DNA of 27,173 bases from positions 1 through 27,173 of the IMG/VR virus record IMGVR_UViG_3300044453_000070; one strand, given 5' to 3'. The stretch is from a virus. Its lineage: Duplodnaviria > Caudoviricetes. This document shows, in pieces, positions 18,653 to 27,173 of this stretch. Made by a program: the position numbers and the translations under genes. The notes under the pieces are model-generated. The model was not told the DNA's origin, ran no database searches, and was given only the letters and a program-made list of their open reading frames with translations. How positions within the stretch are numbered: the first letter of the stretch is position 1; every line of letters begins with the position of its first letter.

Positions 18653-19186
18653 ATGACGTGGTACGCTTTGAGGACCAAACCTGGGGCACAGAAGCCCCAA
18701 CGGGAATACAAGGTCGAAGACACGAGTAGCCGCAAGGGCTATCGCATCGTTCCCAGCCTTGACGCTAACGTGTCCGCTATCGAGCGCGTGTTGACGCAGG
18801 CCGGCATACAGCACTACATGCCGGCCGAGAAGCGATTGATCCGCGATCGGCGCCACACAGACCTGTGGAAGCCTCGCCGGTTCGCTTTGCTAGTCGGCTA
18901 CGTGTTCATCAAAGGCCCGGTCGACTGGTGGCAACTGAGTGAGCTTCCCGGCGTTCATAGCGTGGTGGGAATCAACGGCAAGCCGCTGGAGATTGACTTG
19001 CTCGACATCATGCATTTGCGGAGCCAGGAAGCGGTCATTGAGGAAGAGTTCGACCGCGACGCTCGACGCGCCCGCAAGACGCTCAAGGCCAAGGCACGCG
19101 ACAAGCCATGGCTCAAGAAGCTGGCGGCAAAGCTAGACGCGGCAGACGAATTGACCATGGCGATTGAACTGGCGCGCGCAAGTTGA
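18653..19186 (+). CDS. NusG-family (NGN domain) late antiterminator
   Basis: WYALRTKPG..YMP..LLVGYVFI..LPGVHSVVG..P; occupies the Q position. Confidence 0.85.
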   Translation: MTWYALRTKPGAQKPQREYKVEDTSSRKGYRIVPSLDANVSAIERVLTQAGIQHYMPAEKRLIRDRRHTDLWKPRRFALLVGYVFIKGPVDWWQLSELPGVHSVVGINGKPLEIDLLDIMHLRSQEAVIEEEFDRDARRARKTLKAKARDKPWLKKLAAKLDAADELTMAIELARAS

Positions 19187-19211
19187 CATGGCGCGGCTCA
19201 TGCCGTATGTA
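19183..19211 (+). promoter_or_regulatory. candidate late promoter (PR'-like)
   Basis: TTGACA 19183-19188, N17, TATGTA, directly after the antiterminator gene. Confidence 0.6.
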
Positions 19212-19620
19212 TGAGCGAACGGGTGATTTGCAGCGACGGGGATTCGTCCCGGCTGCGTGCGTGGGTTCTCCGCCGCGCGTTGGCTGCATATTGCCTGACG
19301 TAATTCAGATTGGCGCTTAGCGCCAGCGAGTTGCGAGGTTGCTTGCCGAATTGGCCCCTGGGCCTGTCCAGTCTCCGAGAGATGGCTAGGCAAGACGGTT
19401 GCGGATTTCGCCCCTCGCATTCATTCCCTGCCGCTCCAAGAGTCCGATATCTTCGGGGAGCCACTCAAGGGGCGGCAGGGTTACAGTTGGGAGTATGCTG
19501 GCTCGTAAGATGTCCAGATAGCGAGAGTGCCGCGCCTGCTCTGGTGCGTCTCGCGTAACCACCGGGGCTGTAGCAGGCGCTGCCGGTGCTCCCATATAAA
19601 TCCGAAGAAGGAACACCGCG

Positions 19621-19743
19621 ATGAAGCGCCTAAGGATTAGGATTCTTTTTACCGTAGCCCATGTTCTCCGCGTCCCGATTGATGTCCACGGAAGCTTTTT
19701 TGGCTTCCACACGGAGCCATGCAAAACTTCTTCATGCGCTTAG
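19621..19743 (+). CDS. 40-aa peptide (not in ORF track)
   Basis: RBS GAAGGA; MKRLRIRILFTVAHVLRVPIDVHGSFFG.. Confidence 0.4.
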   Translation: MKRLRIRILFTVAHVLRVPIDVHGSFFGFHTEPCKTSSCA

Positions 19744-19990
19744 CGCCACGACGCATACTGTGCGGTAGGGCTCCGGGTTAGCCCTCTCGCGGCAAACCGC
19801 ACAGGCTTACGAGGCCCGGCTATGCGTCGGAACCGCAGCGGTCATCCGATTGGCGCTGCACAGAGCGGTCACTGCCAACGGTGGCCGCTCTATTCATTCA
19901 GGAGTCTCCCATGTCTGAAGACAGCGACCGTCTGGACATGCTCGCCATCGCGACCGCTGAGGCGCACACGCCCTAAATCAGGATTAGCAG

Positions 19991-20335
19991 ATGCCCTATC
20001 GCGATCCAGCCACCGTGGCGATTGAGAACCTGTACACGCTCCTGGCTCCTGGGGCATCAGGCACGACAACCGATCGATCCGGCTCCATAGCCTCAGGCGG
20101 GACCGCACAGACGCTTGCAGCGGCAAACGGCAACCGTCAGCGTCTCATCGGCCAGAACATCTCCAGCGAGCCTCTGTGGATCAACGAGTTGGGCGGCACG
20201 GCAACGGCAGATACTGTCGGTTCCTATCGCATCTCGTCCTATGCGGTATTCGAGGTACAAACGAAACTCGCGGTTTCCATCGTCGGCCCGACCACGGGTC
20301 AGGAGTGGACCGCGTTCGAACAGAGTAGCGTGTAA
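19991..20335 (+). CDS. beta-rich probable virion accessory protein
   Basis: Gly/Thr/Ala-rich, AQTLAAAN.NR..L..QN.S...LWIN; first long gene of the late region. Confidence 0.55.
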   Translation: MPYRDPATVAIENLYTLLAPGASGTTTDRSGSIASGGTAQTLAAANGNRQRLIGQNISSEPLWINELGGTATADTVGSYRISSYAVFEVQTKLAVSIVGPTTGQEWTAFEQSSV

Positions 20336-20350
20336 GGATGGGCTATCGGT

Positions 20351-20866
20351 ATGGCTGCCCCTGAAGGAAATGACTTCGCGGTTGGCAATCCCGGCGGGGG
20401 CCGCCCGTCTAGCTACAAGCCCGAGTTCGCCCCCATCGCGGAGAAGATGTGCGAGTTAGGCGCGACCGACACGGAGATTGCCGAGGCGTTCGGCGTGAGC
20501 GTCCGCACCATCCACTCGTGGAAGCATGAGTTTGATGAGTTTTCTGCATGCCTGAAGGCAGGTAAGGCGCTCGCTGACGAACGGGTTGAGCGCGGTCTGT
20601 ACCAGAAGGCTACCGGCTACGACTATACGGAAGAGCAGGCCATAAAGGTCAAGGTCGAGGCTCACAAGGAAGAGGTTGAGGTGGTAGAGGTCAAGCGCCA
20701 CGCGCCGGCCGAGACGACCGCCGCGATCTTCTGGCTCAAGAACCGACGCCGCGATCAGTGGCGCGACAAGCAGGAAGTCGACATGAACGTCAGCTATGCG
20801 GACATGTCGGAGGAGGAGTTGCGCGCGGCTGCGATGAAGCTGGCGCTAGAGATAAAGGGCGGCTAG
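20351..20866 (+). CDS. terS: terminase small subunit
   Basis: GRPSSY..GATDTEIAEAFGVS..W..VERGLYQKATGY..AAIFWLKNR..WRDKQE. Confidence 0.88.
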   Translation: MAAPEGNDFAVGNPGGGRPSSYKPEFAPIAEKMCELGATDTEIAEAFGVSVRTIHSWKHEFDEFSACLKAGKALADERVERGLYQKATGYDYTEEQAIKVKVEAHKEEVEVVEVKRHAPAETTAAIFWLKNRRRDQWRDKQEVDMNVSYADMSEEELRAAAMKLALEIKGG

Positions 20867-21051
20867 ACGGGCGTATGTAGCCCAATGCCTGACACCTGTA
20901 GCGCAGCGTACATGTAGACCGCAAACAGCAGCCCGCCTATCAGGTAGGTTGGTACGTAGATACGGGGCGATAAGCCGACCGCGTGCGCTACCAAACCGCT
21001 GAATACCGGCGCGAGAACCGCGACTAGAACCATTGCTTGCCAGTTTGTCAT
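20863..21051 (-). CDS. small two-TM membrane protein
   Basis: RBS AGGAG; hydrophobic 62 aa. Confidence 0.65.
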   Translation of the reverse strand: MTNWQAMVLVAVLAPVFSGLVAHAVGLSPRIYVPTYLIGGLLFAVYMYAALQVSGIGLHTPV

Positions 21052-21227
21052 GGGGTCTCCTAAATCGGGCTGGAACTGAGGTTAGTCTAACTATAGCGTA
21101 TGTGGAATGTGGGATGGTTAGGAGCCTAGCATTCCAACGTATTCACGCCACGGCATAACGTACGTCGTTGTGAGCCATAGCCGCCTGTGGTGGCAATACA
21201 GTGCAACATGGCTATCGTGCGGTTCGT

Positions 21228-21458
21228 TCACGGCCTCGTCTCCTTCAGCCTGTAGCTACGGATAGCGCAGTGTCGCTCGCGTCTGTTGCGGTCATTGGCG
21301 GCTTCCAGCATGATCTTGCGTGCGGTTCCTTCGTGGTTGGCCGCGCGCACTAGGAGATCAAGTTTAAGTTCCTCGCGTGCCCTTTTGGCCATCCGACGGT
21401 TGCTCTGTGCGGCTATCATGCCTAGCACGGAGGCTTGGAAGAGACTGGATAGGCTCAC
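21228..21458 (-). CDS. hypothetical basic protein
   Basis: RBS AGGAG, GTG start. Confidence 0.6.
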   Translation of the reverse strand: MSLSSLFQASVLGMIAAQSNRRMAKRAREELKLDLLVRAANHEGTARKIMLEAANDRNRRERHCAIRSYRLKETRP

Positions 21459-21479
21459 GGCTTGTGTCTCCTAAGGGTG

Positions 21480-21659
21480 TCATACTTTGATCTTGTGGGT
21501 GAACGAGCTTACTTCCAATTCGGCGAGGAAGCGGGCCAGCCCTTTCTCGGTGATGGCGGCCTCGATCTTGGCAACACGCTGTTCCATTTCGGCCTTCTCC
21601 TTCGCCTCCTGGCGGGCGAACTCTGCGTCAGATGTCATTTCAGAATAGTAGTGTCCCAT
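21480..21659 (-). CDS. 59-aa helical protein (not in ORF track)
   Basis: RBS AGGAG; MGHYYSEMTSDAEFARQEAKEKAEMEQRVAKIEAAITEKGLARFLAELEVSSFTHKIKV. Confidence 0.65.
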   Translation of the reverse strand: MGHYYSEMTSDAEFARQEAKEKAEMEQRVAKIEAAITEKGLARFLAELEVSSFTHKIKV

Positions 21660-21671
21660 TGGGGTCTCCTG

Positions 21672-22256
21672 TTACGGCCTGTGTTTGCGTAGCGTGTCAT
21701 TGATCCTCGCCTGCCATCCAGGGCCAGTAGCGCGGAATGCTTCGATGATGTCGGGGTCTAGGCCAACAGACTCGACAACGCTTATAGCATCGGTCCCCTT
21801 GCCCATGTTGCAGTCGCTGCAAAGGGTTATGAGGTTGCTGATGTCGTCTGAGCCGCCACGCGAAACGGGCAGCATGTGGTCGATGTGCAGCACGACCTTG
21901 TGTTCGTCGGCATTGCGACCGCACATCTGACACCTGTAGTCGTCGCGCGAGAAGACATTGAACCGTGTCTTCAGCGAGATAGATCGGGCTTGCTGCTGCC
22001 CGGACGCCACTCTATGGCTTTTGACGCGGCACCGGTCCGAACAAAACTTGGCGTGCCAAGCGCCATAGAACGCGCTGCCGCACCACGCACATTGATGCTC
22101 GTAAGCGCCGCTTGAACGGAGTTTGGCGGCCTCCTCGACGGGCAAGCAAAGCGATGGCGTCTGGACATCGTTGACCAACTTGGCAGGCTTGTTCTTGCAG
22201 GACCGGCCGCACCATCGCCACGAATTACAGACGCCACACTTGTTAAGAAGGTCCAT
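21672..22256 (-). CDS. HNH endonuclease with BrnA-antitoxin-like C-terminal motif
   Basis: RFNVFSRDDYRCQMCG..LHIDHMLPVSRGG..NL..LC..CN..KG then LDPDIIEAFRATGPGWQARINDTLR. Confidence 0.85.
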   Translation of the reverse strand: MDLLNKCGVCNSWRWCGRSCKNKPAKLVNDVQTPSLCLPVEEAAKLRSSGAYEHQCAWCGSAFYGAWHAKFCSDRCRVKSHRVASGQQQARSISLKTRFNVFSRDDYRCQMCGRNADEHKVVLHIDHMLPVSRGGSDDISNLITLCSDCNMGKGTDAISVVESVGLDPDIIEAFRATGPGWQARINDTLRKHRP

Positions 22257-22267
22257 CGCGTTCTCCG

Positions 22268-22312
22268 CCCGTTACAGGAGTGTATGATACGTTAGTGTAA
22301 CGGGGCATGCAA
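22268..22312 (-). promoter_or_regulatory. sigma70-type promoter with overlapping inverted repeat, driving the antisense cassette
   Basis: TTGCAT (22312-22307) N17 TATCAT (22289-22284); CCCGTTACA 22268-22276 / TGTAACGGG 22296-22304. Confidence 0.7.
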
Positions 22313-22350
22313 TGGGTATATGGCGAACAGTTAAGCAGTAAAGGCGCAAC

Positions 22351-24123
22351 GTGGAAGTTCACGATAATCCCGAACGCCTGAGCCTATTCGAGGGCCTGTC
22401 TGAGGCCGACATCGGCCGCATGACCCGCGACCAAGTCGCCCGCATGCTGGGCATCCTTGAGGCGCAGAAGAAGCGCGAAGGGCAACGGCTGTTCTGGCGC
22501 TACTTCCCGGACAAGGACACATCGTATCCGGGCGGCGTGATGTTCCACGCTCGCGAGAAGTACGCAAAGCATCTGGAGTTCTTCCGGGTCGGCGCTACGT
22601 TCCGCGAACGCTGCTTCATGGCGGCCAATCGCTGCATCACTCCGTGGACATGGCTTCAAACGCCGGCCGGTGAGGCCCTGAGCGCAGAAGTTTGGACTTC
22701 GGAAGATGCGACTGTTCTGGCGTGGGACGGTGAAGCAGAACGAACCGCTCAAGCGCAGCACGGAATTCTGAAGTGCATTGAGCCAGCGTTTCGTCTGGTG
22801 ATGGGCAGCGGTCGATTCTTTGACTGCACCCGTAAGCACCGGGTATTGTCGAACGAGGGGTGGCTTTCGCTCGACCAGATAGTGTCTCGTGCAAGTGGTC
22901 TGCGTTTGTGGCATAGACGCGAAGATTATCAGGCCAATTGTGTCGCGGGTGGCTATCTCGGTGGTCAACCACTTCGGTCGCTCGGAGGTATCGACCTAGC
23001 GTCACTTCGGCCACAAGGCGATGCTCAAGGACGCGCCCCGTTGATTTTCGCGCTTCCGGATGAAGCGGAGCAAACACTTCGACATATCCGTGCTTGTCAA
23101 GGACGCGACCGCCTTTCCAGCCAGGATGATCTGTACCGCTTCGCGGCCCTGTTCGCGATGTTTGCAGGTGCGTCGAGCGCGCAATCCTGTCTATCGCTGA
23201 GCGAGTGCACCCGAGACGTTCTGCGGTTTGTTCAAGCGTCAGTCGCTCAACTTCGACAAGATGGCGAACGGTATCGCGATCAATCCGACGCCTATGATCG
23301 CCTCGCTTCTGCCCTGAAGGGATGCCTCGGCGGATCATGTACGCGGACAGGGACGGATGCGATACGCCGATCTGGCGCGCTATGTCATGACGTCCAAGAC
23401 CTTGGCGGCTCAGTTCAAGAATGGTTTGATGGTGAGGGTCGCATAGCGATCTTTTACCCATACGGCCATGTTCCTTTGGTCGGCGGTGAGCACATAGCGG
23501 CAATCGTACCACTCGGTTTGCAGCCAATAATAGACGCAACCGTTCCGGAACACCAGAACTATAAGGCCGCTGGCGTCTACCACCACAACACTGGCAAGAC
23601 CGTAGCCGGCGCTTACGAGACGAGTTGCCATCTGACGGGGCTTTACCCGGATTGGTGGGAAGGTCGACGGTTTGACCGCCCCATCAGGGCATGGGCGGCC
23701 GGCAAGACCAACGAGACGACACGCGACATCGTGCAGGGCTCGCTGATGGGCGAGGTACAGCCTGGCGTCGCCCGCAAGGGGTTTACGGGCACAGGCCTCG
23801 TTCCCGGCGCATTGATCAAACAGGATTCGGTCGCATGGAAGCAGGGCGTTGCCGACCTGTGCGACACGGTGAAGGTGAAGCATGCTTCGGGCGGCTGGTC
23901 CCAGCTTGGCTTCAAAAGCTATCAGCAGGGGCGCGGTTCATTCGAGGGCACGGCGCAGCACGTCATTTGGCTTGATGAGGAGCCGCCGCTGGACGTTTAC
24001 GGCGAGTGCCTTATCCGCACCGCGACCACAAAGGGCATCATCCTCCTGACGTTCACGCCGCTTGAGGGCATGTCGGAAACCGTCATGCAGTTCATGCCGC
24101 AAGAGCACAAGACCGATGCCTGA
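22351..24123 (+). CDS. terL: terminase large subunit, N-terminal (ATPase) part, intein-containing; 271 aa after splicing
   Basis: Walker A MAANR|TGKT split by intein; FKSYQQGRGSFEG; Walker B IWLDEE; TFTPLEG. Confidence 0.93.
   Translation: MEVHDNPERLSLFEGLSEADIGRMTRDQVARMLGILEAQKKREGQRLFWRYFPDKDTSYPGGVMFHAREKYAKHLEFFRVGATFRERCFMAANRCITPWTWLQTPAGEALSAEVWTSEDATVLAWDGEAERTAQAQHGILKCIEPAFRLVMGSGRFFDCTRKHRVLSNEGWLSLDQIVSRASGLRLWHRREDYQANCVAGGYLGGQPLRSLGGIDLASLRPQGDAQGRAPLIFALPDEAEQTLRHIRACQGRDRLSSQDDLYRFAALFAMFAGASSAQSCLSLSECTRDVLRFVQASVAQLRQDGERYRDQSDAYDRLASALKGCLGGSCTRTGTDAIRRSGALCHDVQDLGGSVQEWFDGEGRIAIFYPYGHVPLVGGEHIAAIVPLGLQPIIDATVPEHQNYKAAGVYHHNTGKTVAGAYETSCHLTGLYPDWWEGRRFDRPIRAWAAGKTNETTRDIVQGSLMGEVQPGVARKGFTGTGLVPGALIKQDSVAWKQGVADLCDTVKVKHASGGWSQLGFKSYQQGRGSFEGTAQHVIWLDEEPPLDVYGECLIRTATTKGIILLTFTPLEGMSETVMQFMPQEHKTDA
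22633..23589 (+). mobile_element. intein 1 (319 aa) in TerL Walker A
   Basis: Block A CITPWT, block B CTRKHRVL, block F/G IIDATVPEHQNYKAAGVYHHN, +1 Thr. Confidence 0.92.
22637..23461 (-). CDS. HTH-HTH-HNH endonuclease encoded antisense inside intein 1 (274 aa)
   Basis: AAAGGA-N10-ATG; IARQIGVS and TAERLGC HTHs; HPGWKGG..GYV..GRVLEHRLVAE..LGR.L...EVVDHRD....NWPDNL. Confidence 0.88.
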   Translation of the reverse strand: MGKRSLCDPHHQTILELSRQGLGRHDIARQIGVSHPSLSAYMIRRGIPSGQKRGDHRRRIDRDTVRHLVEVERLTLEQTAERLGCTRSAIDRIARSTHLQTSRTGPRSGTDHPGWKGGRVLDKHGYVEVFAPLHPEARKSTGRVLEHRLVAEVTLGRYLRATEVVDHRDSHPRHNWPDNLRVYATNADHLHETLSGRAKATPRSTIPGAYGCSQRIDRCPSPDETLAQCTSEFRAALERFVLLHRPTPEQSHLPKSKLLRSGPHRPAFEAMSTE

Positions 24124-24691
24124 GAATAAGGTGACGCTATCGCGCGAGTGCTGGCACCGCGCCGACCGGCAGAAGAGGTGCGTGCGCTGCGGCGAGACGA
24201 AGCGTCTTGCGGATTTCTATTCGTATGGTTACGTCACGAACCAAGGGAAGCCAAGCACCAGGTATGAAAGCCGGTGCATCGACTGCAGTAAGGCTAGGAT
24301 GGCGGAGCAAAGGAAGGCGAAACCGCATCTCGTGGTTGAGCAGAACCGCCGAAGGTACGACCGCAATCCCAATTGGTCTCGTGAGCAGTCCAAGCGGTAT
24401 AGAAACACGGAGCATGGCCGTCTCAAGAAGGCTCTTTTGCAGCGCCAGCGAAAGGCGAGAATGCGCAGCAAGTCCGGCGACAATGCCGCTATTAAGGCAG
24501 TCTACGCATTGGCAATGGAGATAGAGCGTATCGTCGCTCAGTGCCCGGTGTTCGATATTCCGGAACTCGGCAAGAAGATGCACGTCGATCACATCATGCC
24601 CCTGTCGCGCGGCGGTCTGCATGAGGTTGAGAATCTGCAAATTCTGCCAATCGGGCTCAATATGCGAAAGGGCGCGTCGTGCCCGAGATAA
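24116..24691 (+). CDS. free-standing HNH endonuclease between the terL halves (191 aa)
   Basis: CVRC..CIDC zinc ribbon; MHVDHIMPLSRGGLHEVENLQILP...NMRKG; overlaps both terL ORFs. Confidence 0.9.
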   Translation: MPENKVTLSRECWHRADRQKRCVRCGETKRLADFYSYGYVTNQGKPSTRYESRCIDCSKARMAEQRKAKPHLVVEQNRRRYDRNPNWSREQSKRYRNTEHGRLKKALLQRQRKARMRSKSGDNAAIKAVYALAMEIERIVAQCPVFDIPELGKKMHVDHIMPLSRGGLHEVENLQILPIGLNMRKGASCPR

Positions 24692-26385
24692 CCTCGTCTC
24701 GGTACCTTGTCACGGCGGGCTGGAGCAATGTCCCGCACCTAGACGAGGACACCAAGCGCGAGCTGCTGAACTCGACGCCGCCGCACCTTCGGGATGCGCG
24801 CACCAAGGGCATCCCTTCGCTCGGTTCCGGTGCGATCTACCCGGTTGCATGGGAGGAAGTCGAGTGTAGGCCGTTCGCTATCCCGGCTTATTGGCCGAAG
24901 GCGTATGCGCTCGACGTGGGCTGGAACAAGACCGCTGCCCTGTGGGGCGCGAAAGACCCGTCCGATGGCGTGCTGTACATCTACGCCGAGCACTATCGAG
25001 GGCAGGAGTTGCCGCCGGTCCACGCCGAGGCGATCAAGGTTCGCGGGGCTTGGATCAAGGGCGCGATTGACCCTGCCGCTCGTGGCCGTGCCCAGCGCGA
25101 CGGCGAGCAACTGATGAGCCAGTATGTGTCGCTCGGGCTGAAGCTGACGCCAGCGAACAACGCGGTCGAGTCTGGCCTGTACGAGATATGGAAACTGCTT
25201 TCCATCGGGCGCATCCGGTTCTTTTCGACGCTGCAGAACACGAAGGCTGAGTATCGCATGTATCGCCGTGATGAGCGCGGCCGGGTGGTGAAAGAGTTCG
25301 ATCACCTGATGGATTGCTTCGTCGCCGACACGCCGGTTCACACCAGTGATGGCATTAAGCGAATTGGCGATATGGTAGGAACAACCGGTCTTGTGAGAAC
25401 GGTCGGCGGCGTGTTTGCTCCTTACCATTCCTGCCAAAAGTATGGCAGCGATCGGCAGGTGGTGACGCTGACATTCTCCGATGGCTCAGAGGTAACCTGT
25501 ACTCCTGATCATAGGTTCATGTCGGGCGGCAAATGGGTCCAAGCGATTGATATGGCAGGGCGCTTGTGCGATACTGCGGTATCGAATAGCGCAGGCTTTA
25601 GCAAATGCCGGTCACGGTCATCTCTGGAACCATTCAGGAATACAAAGGCGAGCGGTACTACCTCTGCGGCAAGTACTTCCAACGCGCGGGGCTGCGCCTT
25701 CACGTCGCTGTTTGGAAGGATGCGAATGGCTGTGATGTCCCAGATGGGCATCACGTCCATCACAAGGACCACGACAGGGCCAACAACCAGCCATGGAACC
25801 TGGAAGCGAAGCCTAAAGGGCTGCATATCTCCGATCACCAGCGCGGGCATGGGCGCGGCATTTCTAGCAATGCACTTGCCGCTGCGGCTGAATGGCATAG
25901 CTCGCCGAGCGGTGCGGAATGGCATCGAAGCCACTATGAGGCAACCAAGCATTTTCTGCATGAACCCGCAGATTTCGTTTGCGAGCATTGTGCCAAGCCG
26001 TTCACGAGCACAGCGAGGGGGCATGCTCGATTTTGCTCGAACAACTGCAAAACCAAGGCACGGAAACTTACTGGAGTTGACGACGAAAGCCGCTCCTGCG
26101 TCCGGTGTGGCTCATCGTTCATTGTCAACCGGTACTCGCGAACCGTCACTTGTAGCCGAAAGTGCGCAGGTGCGGTGTCTGGCGATAAGAGACGCCGGCC
26201 GCGCTGACGTTTACTGTCTGACCGTCCCAAGCACATCAGCTTTCGCCGTAGGCGAGGCAGGCATCATCGCGCACAATTGCCTACGCTACCTCGTCATGAC
26301 GTGGGACCAGATCGCAGCGGTACAGGCCCCGGAGCGCAGCCGCGCGACCGTCAACGCAATCTCTGACATGTACGCAGGTTACTGA
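24679..26385 (+). CDS. terL: terminase large subunit, C-terminal (lid + RNase H-like nuclease) part, intein-containing; 247 aa after splicing
   Basis: GAAAGGG before GTG; AGWSNVPHL..ARTKGIP; YALDVGW, IDPAA, DHLMD|CLRY. Confidence 0.92.
   Translation: MPEITSSRYLVTAGWSNVPHLDEDTKRELLNSTPPHLRDARTKGIPSLGSGAIYPVAWEEVECRPFAIPAYWPKAYALDVGWNKTAALWGAKDPSDGVLYIYAEHYRGQELPPVHAEAIKVRGAWIKGAIDPAARGRAQRDGEQLMSQYVSLGLKLTPANNAVESGLYEIWKLLSIGRIRFFSTLQNTKAEYRMYRRDERGRVVKEFDHLMDCFVADTPVHTSDGIKRIGDMVGTTGLVRTVGGVFAPYHSCQKYGSDRQVVTLTFSDGSEVTCTPDHRFMSGGKWVQAIDMAGRLCDTAVSNSAGFSKCRSRSSLEPFRNTKASGTTSAASTSNARGCAFTSLFGRMRMAVMSQMGITSITRTTTGPTTSHGTWKRSLKGCISPITSAGMGAAFLAMHLPLRLNGIARRAVRNGIEATMRQPSIFCMNPQISFASIVPSRSRAQRGGMLDFARTTAKPRHGNLLELTTKAAPASGVAHRSLSTGTREPSLVAESAQVRCLAIRDAGRADVYCLTVPSTSAFAVGEAGIIAHNCLRYLVMTWDQIAAVQAPERSRATVNAISDMYAGY
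25547..25575 (+). promoter_or_regulatory. candidate internal promoter for the nested HNH gene
   Basis: TTGATA N17 GATACT with extended -10 TG, ending 30 nt before ATG 25605. Confidence 0.6.
25605..26207 (+). CDS. HNH endonuclease in a shifted frame inside intein 2 (200 aa)
   Basis: RLHVAVW....DVPDGHHVHHKDHDRANNQPWNL; C-terminal CEHC..FCSNNC and CVRC..TCSRKC zinc ribbons. Confidence 0.9.
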   Translation: MPVTVISGTIQEYKGERYYLCGKYFQRAGLRLHVAVWKDANGCDVPDGHHVHHKDHDRANNQPWNLEAKPKGLHISDHQRGHGRGISSNALAAAAEWHSSPSGAEWHRSHYEATKHFLHEPADFVCEHCAKPFTSTARGHARFCSNNCKTKARKLTGVDDESRSCVRCGSSFIVNRYSRTVTCSRKCAGAVSGDKRRRPR

Positions 26386-27173
26386 TGGCAGAAATGGCAG
26401 AGATGGCGCCGGAGGCGGTCAACCCCGAAGACGCGCAGCGCAAGTTGCTGGACGCACTGAAGGGCATCGTCGGCCGTCTGGAATCCGAGGCGACGGATCG
26501 TGTCGGCAAGCGCCAGTCGCTTGAGCGACGCTGGATCGAAGACCTTGAGCAGTACCACGGGCGTTACGACACCGAGACGGAAAAGGCGCTGCGGAACGGC
26601 GACAAGTCCAAGCTGTTCATCAACCTGACGCGTCCGAAGACCGACGCGATGGAAGCGCGGTTGACGGACCTTCTGTTCCCGACCGACGACAAGAATTGGG
26701 GCATCGGCCCGACGCCTGTCCCCAGCCTGACCAAGGGCGCAAAGGATGCCGTCGCGCAGGCCCGCCAGAAGGCCGAGGAAGCGAAGGCGGCTGCGGCGGG
26801 TGGCGATCCCGCAATGGCGCAGGCTGCGGCTCAGGAAGCCAACCTGGCCCAGCAGAAGGCCAACGAGCTAAACACGGTTATCGAGGAAGCGTCTCGCCGC
26901 GCCGAACTGATGGCGCAGGAGATAGACGACCAACTGAAGCAGTCCAACTATCACGCGGCCATGCGCGACGTGATCGGTGATGCGGCCAAGCTCGGAACCG
27001 GCGTGTGCAAGGGGCCGGTCACTGGCGACAAGGTGCGCAAGGGTTGGAAGAAGGTCGACGTTGCCGATGGCAACGGGAATGTGTCGAGCCAGTATCAGTT
27101 GCAGATGGCCACGGGCGATCACCCGTCCATGCGCTACGTCGACATCTGGTCGTTCTTCCCCGATATGGACGCT
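26385..27173 (+). CDS. portal protein, 5' part (runs off window)
   Basis: ATG overlaps terL stop; MAEMAEMAPE..W..DLEQY.G..SKLFINLTRPK..LFP..NWGIGPTP; position after terL. Confidence 0.85.
   Translation, partial: MAEMAEMAPEAVNPEDAQRKLLDALKGIVGRLESEATDRVGKRQSLERRWIEDLEQYHGRYDTETEKALRNGDKSKLFINLTRPKTDAMEARLTDLLFPTDDKNWGIGPTPVPSLTKGAKDAVAQARQKAEEAKAAAAGGDPAMAQAAAQEANLAQQKANELNTVIEEASRRAELMAQEIDDQLKQSNYHAAMRDVIGDAAKLGTGVCKGPVTGDKVRKGWKKVDVADGNGNVSSQYQLQMATGDHPSMRYVDIWSFFPDMDA

Follow-up and report, generated by a model that had tools for sequence, protein, structure and literature searches.

The terminase of the window (the whole 27,173-nt stretch of phage DNA analysed here) appears from its sequence to be interrupted by an intein, intein 2, which carries a complete HNH endonuclease gene in the +2 frame at its central insertion point, and the intein and the gene probably form a single homing element (Table 1). 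Comparison with relatives reveals dual coding, selection that is specific to the reading frame, and scatter of the element among related terminase genes.

Table 1. Features of the packaging region, intein 2 and the gene nested within it
Feature	Position	Strand	Details
terS	20351-20866
Terminase ATPase gene	22351-24123	+	bears intein 1
Intein 1	22633-23589	+	319 aa, at AANR/TGKT of the terminase ATPase gene (slash, insertion point)
Antisense HTH-HNH_3 gene	22637-23539	-	nested in intein 1
Free-standing HNH/EndoVII-like gene	24116-24691	+	between the two terminase genes; phrog_1035, endonuclease VII-like/HNH
Terminase large subunit nuclease-domain gene	24679-26385	+	host of intein 2; Terminase_6C, E 3e-4 (below cut-off); phrog_5653
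N-extein end	25297-25314	+	FDHLMD, with the D-H-x-x-D motif that is conserved toward the end of the terminase's nuclease domain
Intein 2	25315-26277	+	321 aa; Cys1, block B TPDH (25501-25512), block F DVYC, terminal His-Asn
Predicted sigma70-type promoter	25547-25575	+	TTGATA-17-GATACT, extended TG; consensus scan
TAG in the HNH frame	25599-25601	+	two codons 5' of the ATG
Intein-frame shadow loop	25603-26202	+	about 200 codons, stop-free, otherwise near-neutral
Nested HNH endonuclease gene	25605-26207	+	200 aa, +2 to the intein frame; HNH_3, phrog_15471
HNH catalytic core	25698-25838	+	residues 32-78
Two C4 zinc-finger units	25980-26165	+	C126/129/144/148 and C165/168/183/187; predicted DNA-binding part
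Cys+1 of the C-extein	26278-26280	+	CLRY
Large structural gene	starts 26385

Open reading frames and profile matches identify the window as a phage packaging region, in which the nuclease-domain terminase gene is an ORF separate from the ATPase half, as it is in close relatives. The gene with the phrog_1035 match represents a third nuclease, and both of its ends overlap the flanking terminase genes. Since the terminase halves are separate in 11/11 relatives inspected, mostly with unrelated genes in between, the split is not due to this nuclease gene. Seven relatives of intein 1 were found; all six that were examined share the A[AG]NR site and have an open intein frame there, and one of the six has a stop within the HNH match. 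An antisense HNH is absent from the intein types given in the accessible text of Gosselin [bioRxiv 10.1101/2025.01.02.630785]. A minus-strand ORF between terS and terL (21672-22256) combines an HNH and a CxxC finger with a C-terminal match resembling the BrnA antitoxin, and is the fourth HNH within 5 kb.

Intein 2 is supported as a class 1 intein by its profiles, by its insertion, and by its splicing residues. Its translation is free of stops, running CFVADT...TPDH...DVYC...IIAHN between FDHLMD and CLRYLVMT, and both intein end models score above their NCBIfam cut-offs (TIGR01445, 31.9 bits vs 24.5; TIGR01443, 19.4 vs 15.6). In 34/34 terminase relatives that reach the site, a number that provides no estimate of frequency as the same search missed known intein-bearing relatives, the DHxxD motif is uninterrupted and leads straight into the C-extein, so that intein 2 is an in-frame insertion; some of these empty relatives share the exact DHLMD-CLRY junction. 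Across the family, Cys1 together with TxxH, the terminal Asn, and Cys, Ser, or Thr at +1 are each present in 55/55. A fractured (split) intein was considered for the window and rejected, given that intein 2 is one open frame.

The sequence-only reading had placed a 200-aa ORF at +2 between the end of block B and about the start of block F, bounded by its own TAG and TGA, and translation bears out each of these points. The TGA of the HNH gene (26205-26207) overlaps the codons for Ala-Asp in block F and lies 24 codons short of the intein's end. The intein frame opposite the gene had been described as a Ser/Thr/Arg/Ala-rich shadow that stays open for some 200 codons; the peptide quoted is present, and the 200 residues include 25 Ala, 24 Ser, 23 Arg, and 21 Thr. 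A single-sequence fold of the whole of intein 2 gives a pLDDT of 33 throughout, with the splicing domain included, and the model is consequently silent on disorder of the loop. It is equally uninformative about a Hint fold, which draws some support from the profile matches. For the window taken by itself, an open shadow frame is expected by chance with P = 0.29 under within-gene synonymous permutation, P = 0.028 under the window's codon usage, and P = 0.001 under a third model. Thus, in a gene of 57% GC, the open frame alone is weak evidence, and the case rests on the relatives.

The nested ORF matches Pfam HNH_3 (E 8e-10) and, over residues 1-197, phrog_15471 (E 9e-44). H52, H53, D55, N61, N65, and H74 are invariant in 102/102 nested sequences, as are the first four cysteines of the finger region; the second finger is absent in about 13/102. 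The predicted structure has a pLDDT of 93.4 (30-sequence alignment). There is a profile match to I-HmuI (E 0.0016), an intron-encoded enzyme. When the first 83 residues are compared with the structure of I-HmuI (PDB 1U3E), 75 residues align with Z 7.9 and an rmsd of 2.7. In a Foldseek search of the PDB, nothing was found at E <= 0.001, the best match being again I-HmuI (E 0.057), and a structure search of BFVD gave only partial matches to the HNH and the fingers. By profile and structural model, then, the nested protein is an I-HmuI-like HNH of the HNH_3 type whose core is intact, and a homing endonuclease role is predicted for it. Of the earlier label "HNH/zinc-ribbon," the first half stands, and the second needs refinement: the zinc fingers are CxxC...CSxxC units with a weak resemblance to FCS/YacG fingers.

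So odd a layout might reflect an assembly error or an in-frame HNH intein that has decayed, and a search with the splicing domain did recover related in-frame HNH inteins (L150, L161, and L204) from a terL site close by. However, assembly contigs from 4/4 sequencing runs contain no letter differences or indels relative to the window, although one full-stretch contig may be the window's source; another contig (25169-26328) spans the whole intein. Compensating indels that would place the HNH in the intein frame, which the sequence-only reading had named as refuting it, are therefore not seen in these contigs. With the catalytic residues invariant and the same offset present in 99 loci, error or decay has a negligible probability and was already ruled out by the family survey.

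That survey used the HNH as query and yielded 99 loci, which with the window gave 100 rows; four duplicates, one unrelated sequence, and one truncated sequence were removed, and 94 loci were classified, seven of them having been assigned by hand. The HNH gene is nested at +2 in an open terminase intein in 58 of the 94, counting the window, and at +1 in four, lies between the halves of a split intein in 17, is free-standing in 14, and is frameshifted in one. A second set of 95 loci, from which 14 weak partial matches (L314-L327) stand outside the classification, comprises 78 non-duplicates: 41 nested at +2, 18 split (two of them doubtful, being stop-free), 11 free, and eight at a contig edge. 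Both sets together give the 99 loci with the +2 offset. Four of the nested genes are in cultured phages, TJE1, Highwayman, phiCDHM19, and LS06-2018-MD07, whose records list terL alone at that place. In the one frameshifted locus (L006, 3060-4782), a one-base frame change in mid-HNH fuses the intein and HNH frames; from its sequence, this is taken to reflect either an error in sequencing or an allele that is dead.

The position of the insertion varies along the motif (DH/C, DHx/C, DHxxD/C, DHxxDx/C or T, the slash marking the junction), and three of these positions occur within the single four-member HNH clade (95% support) to which the window belongs. Among the 25 free rows, about 11 lie directly downstream of a complete terL end with a DHxxD-type motif, and three are convergent with terL. 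A search with the splicing domain added four further +1 loci, an intein whose HNH has an internal deletion (L172), and, again at this motif, the mini-inteins L141, L143, L155, and L218. When the whole intein was compared with cultured phages, one record matched, a mini-intein. Longer fused forms are represented by one protein of 395 aa among 1664 candidates, which is weak evidence. Several individual loci deserve mention. In L073 (2627-3712), the HNH stands behind a complete terL end and is itself followed by the terL end once more (CDAMRY...), this time in an overlapping frame that is open and has no detected splicing domain. L096 (Vibrio phage 1.238.A) has the split form in its record with the HNH unannotated. 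In L069 and L087 the same HNH family is found at +2 in inteins away from the DHxxD motif, the site in L087 being like Walker B. Finally, a single bacterial chromosome record holds the nested element twice (L299 and L300), at a distance of 52 kb, the copies probably lying in a repeated prophage region.

The HNH frame is under purifying selection; the intein frame opposite it is near neutral and yet is kept free of stops. Nucleotide identity to L002 is 0.71, 0.73, and 0.35 at the first, second, and third HNH codon positions, respectively, and amino acid identity is 62% in the HNH frame vs 26% in the intein frame, so that relatives keep the HNH frame rather than the loop, the reverse of what the sequence-only reading had named as refuting it. 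In 1652/1653 pairs it is the HNH frame that shows the greater conservation, with the proviso that loci gathered with the HNH as query are biased toward HNH conservation. For 18 close pairs, 14 of which come from one clade, dN/dS is 0.08-0.24 in the HNH frame (15 pairs computable) and 0.93-1.61 in the intein frame (16 computable). In members whose loop does not have to stay open, the equivalent frame contains a mean of 9.4 stops (split) or 6.6 stops (free) and the other frame about 21; the equivalent frame is open in 1/31 split and free members. A stop in the intein frame is unavoidable wherever Met precedes Ile, Met, Thr, Asn, or Lys, and such pairs occur 39 times in 6276 unconstrained residues vs 0 times in 11488 nested residues. 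The absence of stops and of these Met pairs from nested loci follows from how the class is defined; it shows the cost of the arrangement rather than independent proof of it. Because the unconstrained genes of the family hold fewer stops in the frame concerned (about 8 vs about 21), the +2 offset was likely favored. The accessible part of an earlier study [Sabath 2008, PMC2542354] reports no general difference in stop codons between phases, and the argument from phase is consequently specific to the HNH family data presented here.

How might a gene hidden in this way be expressed? The predicted promoter of the window sits among the codons for the N-terminal splicing region and is 29 nt 5' of the HNH ATG. 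The consensus scan, which covered 22300-26500, gave two promoter-like sites vs 1.3 expected, and the site in question has p = 0.025 against synonymous resampling. Under a scoring scheme that is our own, a score of at least 11 within 60 nt of the start is found in 44/58 nested loci vs 15.7% of control windows. Since synonymous resampling of the intein codons still leaves 22.0 of the 58 expected, part of the signal is due to the protein sequence itself; 23/58 loci reach p <= 0.05. High scores are also found in 14/14 free members and 12/16 split members. In ten loci (L043, L046, L052, L056, L061, L069, L074, L090, L092, and L093) the -10 element ends exactly 6 nt 5' of the start codon and there is no Shine-Dalgarno sequence, which suggests that these are candidates for leaderless transcripts. 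These -10 elements mostly have an extended TG and often encode Gly-Asp-Ile. A Shine-Dalgarno sequence of -4 kcal/mol or lower is present in 32/58 nested loci vs 20% of controls. In the window, a palindrome and candidate hairpin, CGATAC-TGCG-GTATCG (25568-25583), overlaps the predicted -10 and does not reach the ATG; it may be an operator for self-repression. A similar sequence of the type GC[CG]GTA[TA]CG is found 3' of the -10 in L013, L014, L026, and L031.

Alternatively, the HNH might lack a start of its own and be joined to the intein's N-terminal portion by a programmed -1 ribosomal frameshift. The +2 offset is what a -1 shift would require, the Shine-Dalgarno sequence of the window is weak (-2.6 kcal/mol), and the one-base frame change in L006 fuses the two frames. 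Yet slippery heptamers number zero in the window and are present in 6/58 nested loci, a start codon is found near the HNH start in 58/58, the Shine-Dalgarno and promoter signals are enriched, and the +1 offset recurs in four loci of the first set and in the four more recovered through the splicing domain. A frameshift origin for the protein is accordingly very unlikely, and the earlier proposal of a self-contained gene rather than a frameshift fusion is supported by the start codons, the promoter-like site, and the lack of a slippery heptamer in the window.

As homing predicts, intein-bearing and empty alleles are intermixed in a patchy fashion on the tree of the host gene. Among 33 exteins, 10 intein-bearing and 23 empty, nine changes of intein state are needed vs 8.7 with shuffled labels, and L101, the extein that is sister to that of the window, lacks an intein; however, this tree is short, poorly resolved, and unrooted, and patchiness could also be explained by loss. 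A full intein at +1 (L140) and a mini-intein (L141) have flanks that are 92-98% identical. On the HNH tree, a quick and weak unrooted tree with 40/89 forks open, the four states need 17 changes vs 31.7 when shuffled, with at least four forced for the +2 state. Distances between HNH sequences and between splicing domains are weakly correlated (Spearman 0.23). L060, a split intein, falls inside a well-supported nested clade (98%), which implies that the states interconvert. Given that the trees are short, unrooted, and poorly resolved, no order of events from free to split to nested is claimed.

A different function for the HNH has also been considered. The protein could be a helper of the terminase in DNA packaging, similar to HK97 gp74, and could reside in terL for the sake of co-expression rather than homing. 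Nearly all members are indeed in or beside terL, this idea is raised in the accessible part of the brucellaphage paper [PMC4422536], and homing and packaging roles have been stated not to be mutually exclusive [PMC10448857]. Still, the 34/34 close terminase relatives do without the intein and nested HNH at this site, the distribution is patchy, the HNH is lost by deletion among near-identical phages (L140 vs L141, in a +1 clade), and the architecture is like that of I-HmuI. A packaging role in place of homing is thus improbable.

The homing element that we favor would work as follows. Terminase mRNA would be read straight through to yield a precursor with a 200-residue passenger loop, which would be spliced out with the intein to restore DHLMD-CLRY. 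The HNH would be made separately, from its own ATG and the promoter in the N-terminal coding sequence of the intein, and, like I-HmuI, would nick or cut the DHxxD codons of a co-infecting phage whose allele is empty. Repair of the cut allele would then copy the whole cassette, and intein and HNH would spread together. As to origin, a free-standing HNH gene just downstream of terL may have ended up inside an intein that occupies the gene's own target; the split-intein forms would represent states that neighbor the nested arrangement.

One could suppose instead that no splicing precursor ever contains the loop, either because the loop is removed as an RNA intron or because translation of the intein's C-terminal half begins internally and splicing takes place in trans. 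That 17/94 relatives are split inteins does suggest that halves can work in trans. This supposition, though, would provide no reason for the roughly 200 stop-free codons in 62/94 loci, and an Rfam search of 19000-27173, in which divergent cores can be missed, gave no match at E <= 1. With no self-splicing RNA core around the ORF at that threshold, a group I or group II intron encoding the HNH was rejected. There is only a slight chance that the loop is absent from the precursor.

The general design, a gene hidden out of frame in an intein, is already published, and the elements that appear new are the family, the site, the series of forms, and the promoter. What follows is drawn from the accessible parts of the reports cited. 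The terminase intein of brucellaphages Tb and Pr, reported in 2015 [PMC4422536; record JN939331, ORF07/ORF08], likewise stays open in its own frame while an HNH/zinc-finger gene is nested in it on the same strand, out of frame. In brucellaphage Tb, however, the site is in the ATPase domain (GNRAD/CVIIDD), the offset is +1, and the fingers precede the HNH, whereas here the site is in the nuclease domain, the offset is +2, and the HNH comes first. The two HNH proteins have weak local similarity (BLASTP E 0.014; profile E 4e-8). Membership in the brucellaphage family was rejected, as site, offset, and domain order all differ. Inteins of actinophages with an endonuclease VII-like nuclease in frame 3 [bioRxiv 10.1101/2025.01.02.630785] share with intein 2 the offset, the slot, and the proposed origin, in which a free-standing nuclease invades an intein; they differ in the class of nuclease, EndoVII-like there and HNH_3 here. 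The window was set apart from this class by description, since its nested ORF matches HNH_3 and HNH PHROGs and no EndoVII family. The words "promoter," "zinc," "TJE1," and "nuclease domain" do not occur in the main text of that preprint, whose supplements may list more cases.

A cyanobacterial dnaX intein with a LAGLIDADG ORF at +2 [bioRxiv 10.64898/2026.09.14.751524] has, in the accessible text, similar frame-dependent dN/dS and coexisting empty, mini, and full alleles; it differs in its chromosomal dnaX host and its nuclease, and no split or free relatives are identified there. In the fractured genes of Dassa et al. [2009, PMC2677866], a nuclease gene lies between an N-half and a C-half, a layout shared by the 17/94 split relatives; those nucleases, as far as the accessible portion describes them, belong to GIY-YIG or Vsr-like types and two ORFs make up the intein, whereas that of the window is contiguous. 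The ShiLan element [PMC11855218], as described in the accessible part of its report, has an HNH of about 200 codons that occupies the third frame of its host gene, the host frame itself being open. It shares the hidden HNH with the window and differs in having a methylase host and no splicing domain. Compared with I-HmuI (PDB 1U3E), the N-terminal catalytic domain is alike, and the C-terminal part here consists of two C4 fingers. Mycobacteriophage terminase inteins are located in the ATPase domain only, according to the part of Kelley [2016, PMC5050341] that is accessible. A literature search, with subscription journals mostly outside its coverage and preprint supplements that may bear on the matter, produced no account of this HNH family, of the nuclease-domain site, of a free, split, nested, and mini series, or of an embedded promoter.

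A broader hypothesis, to which about even credence is given, holds jointly that an HNH family targeting DHxxD displays all stages (free, split-flanked, nested at +2 or +1, deleted, and mini), that its promoter is embedded in splicing-domain codons, with leaderless expression in about ten loci, and that the cassette moves among at least four codon positions around the Asp. The value of the system lies in the family series and a testable internal promoter rather than in the nesting itself. The family constitutes a large natural series for testing the nuclease-acquisition model of Dassa and Gosselin, which so far has been drawn from scattered cases, and the difference between about 8 and about 21 stops offers a simple reason why one offset is favored in same-strand cases. 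The predicted internal promoter bears on how hidden nucleases are expressed, and unannotated genes are flagged in cultured phages, namely TJE1, Highwayman, phiCDHM19, and LS06-2018-MD07. If the broader hypothesis is true, nested out-of-frame nucleases would be a stable and common intein design, rather than a rare transition, that has been overlooked in phage annotations.
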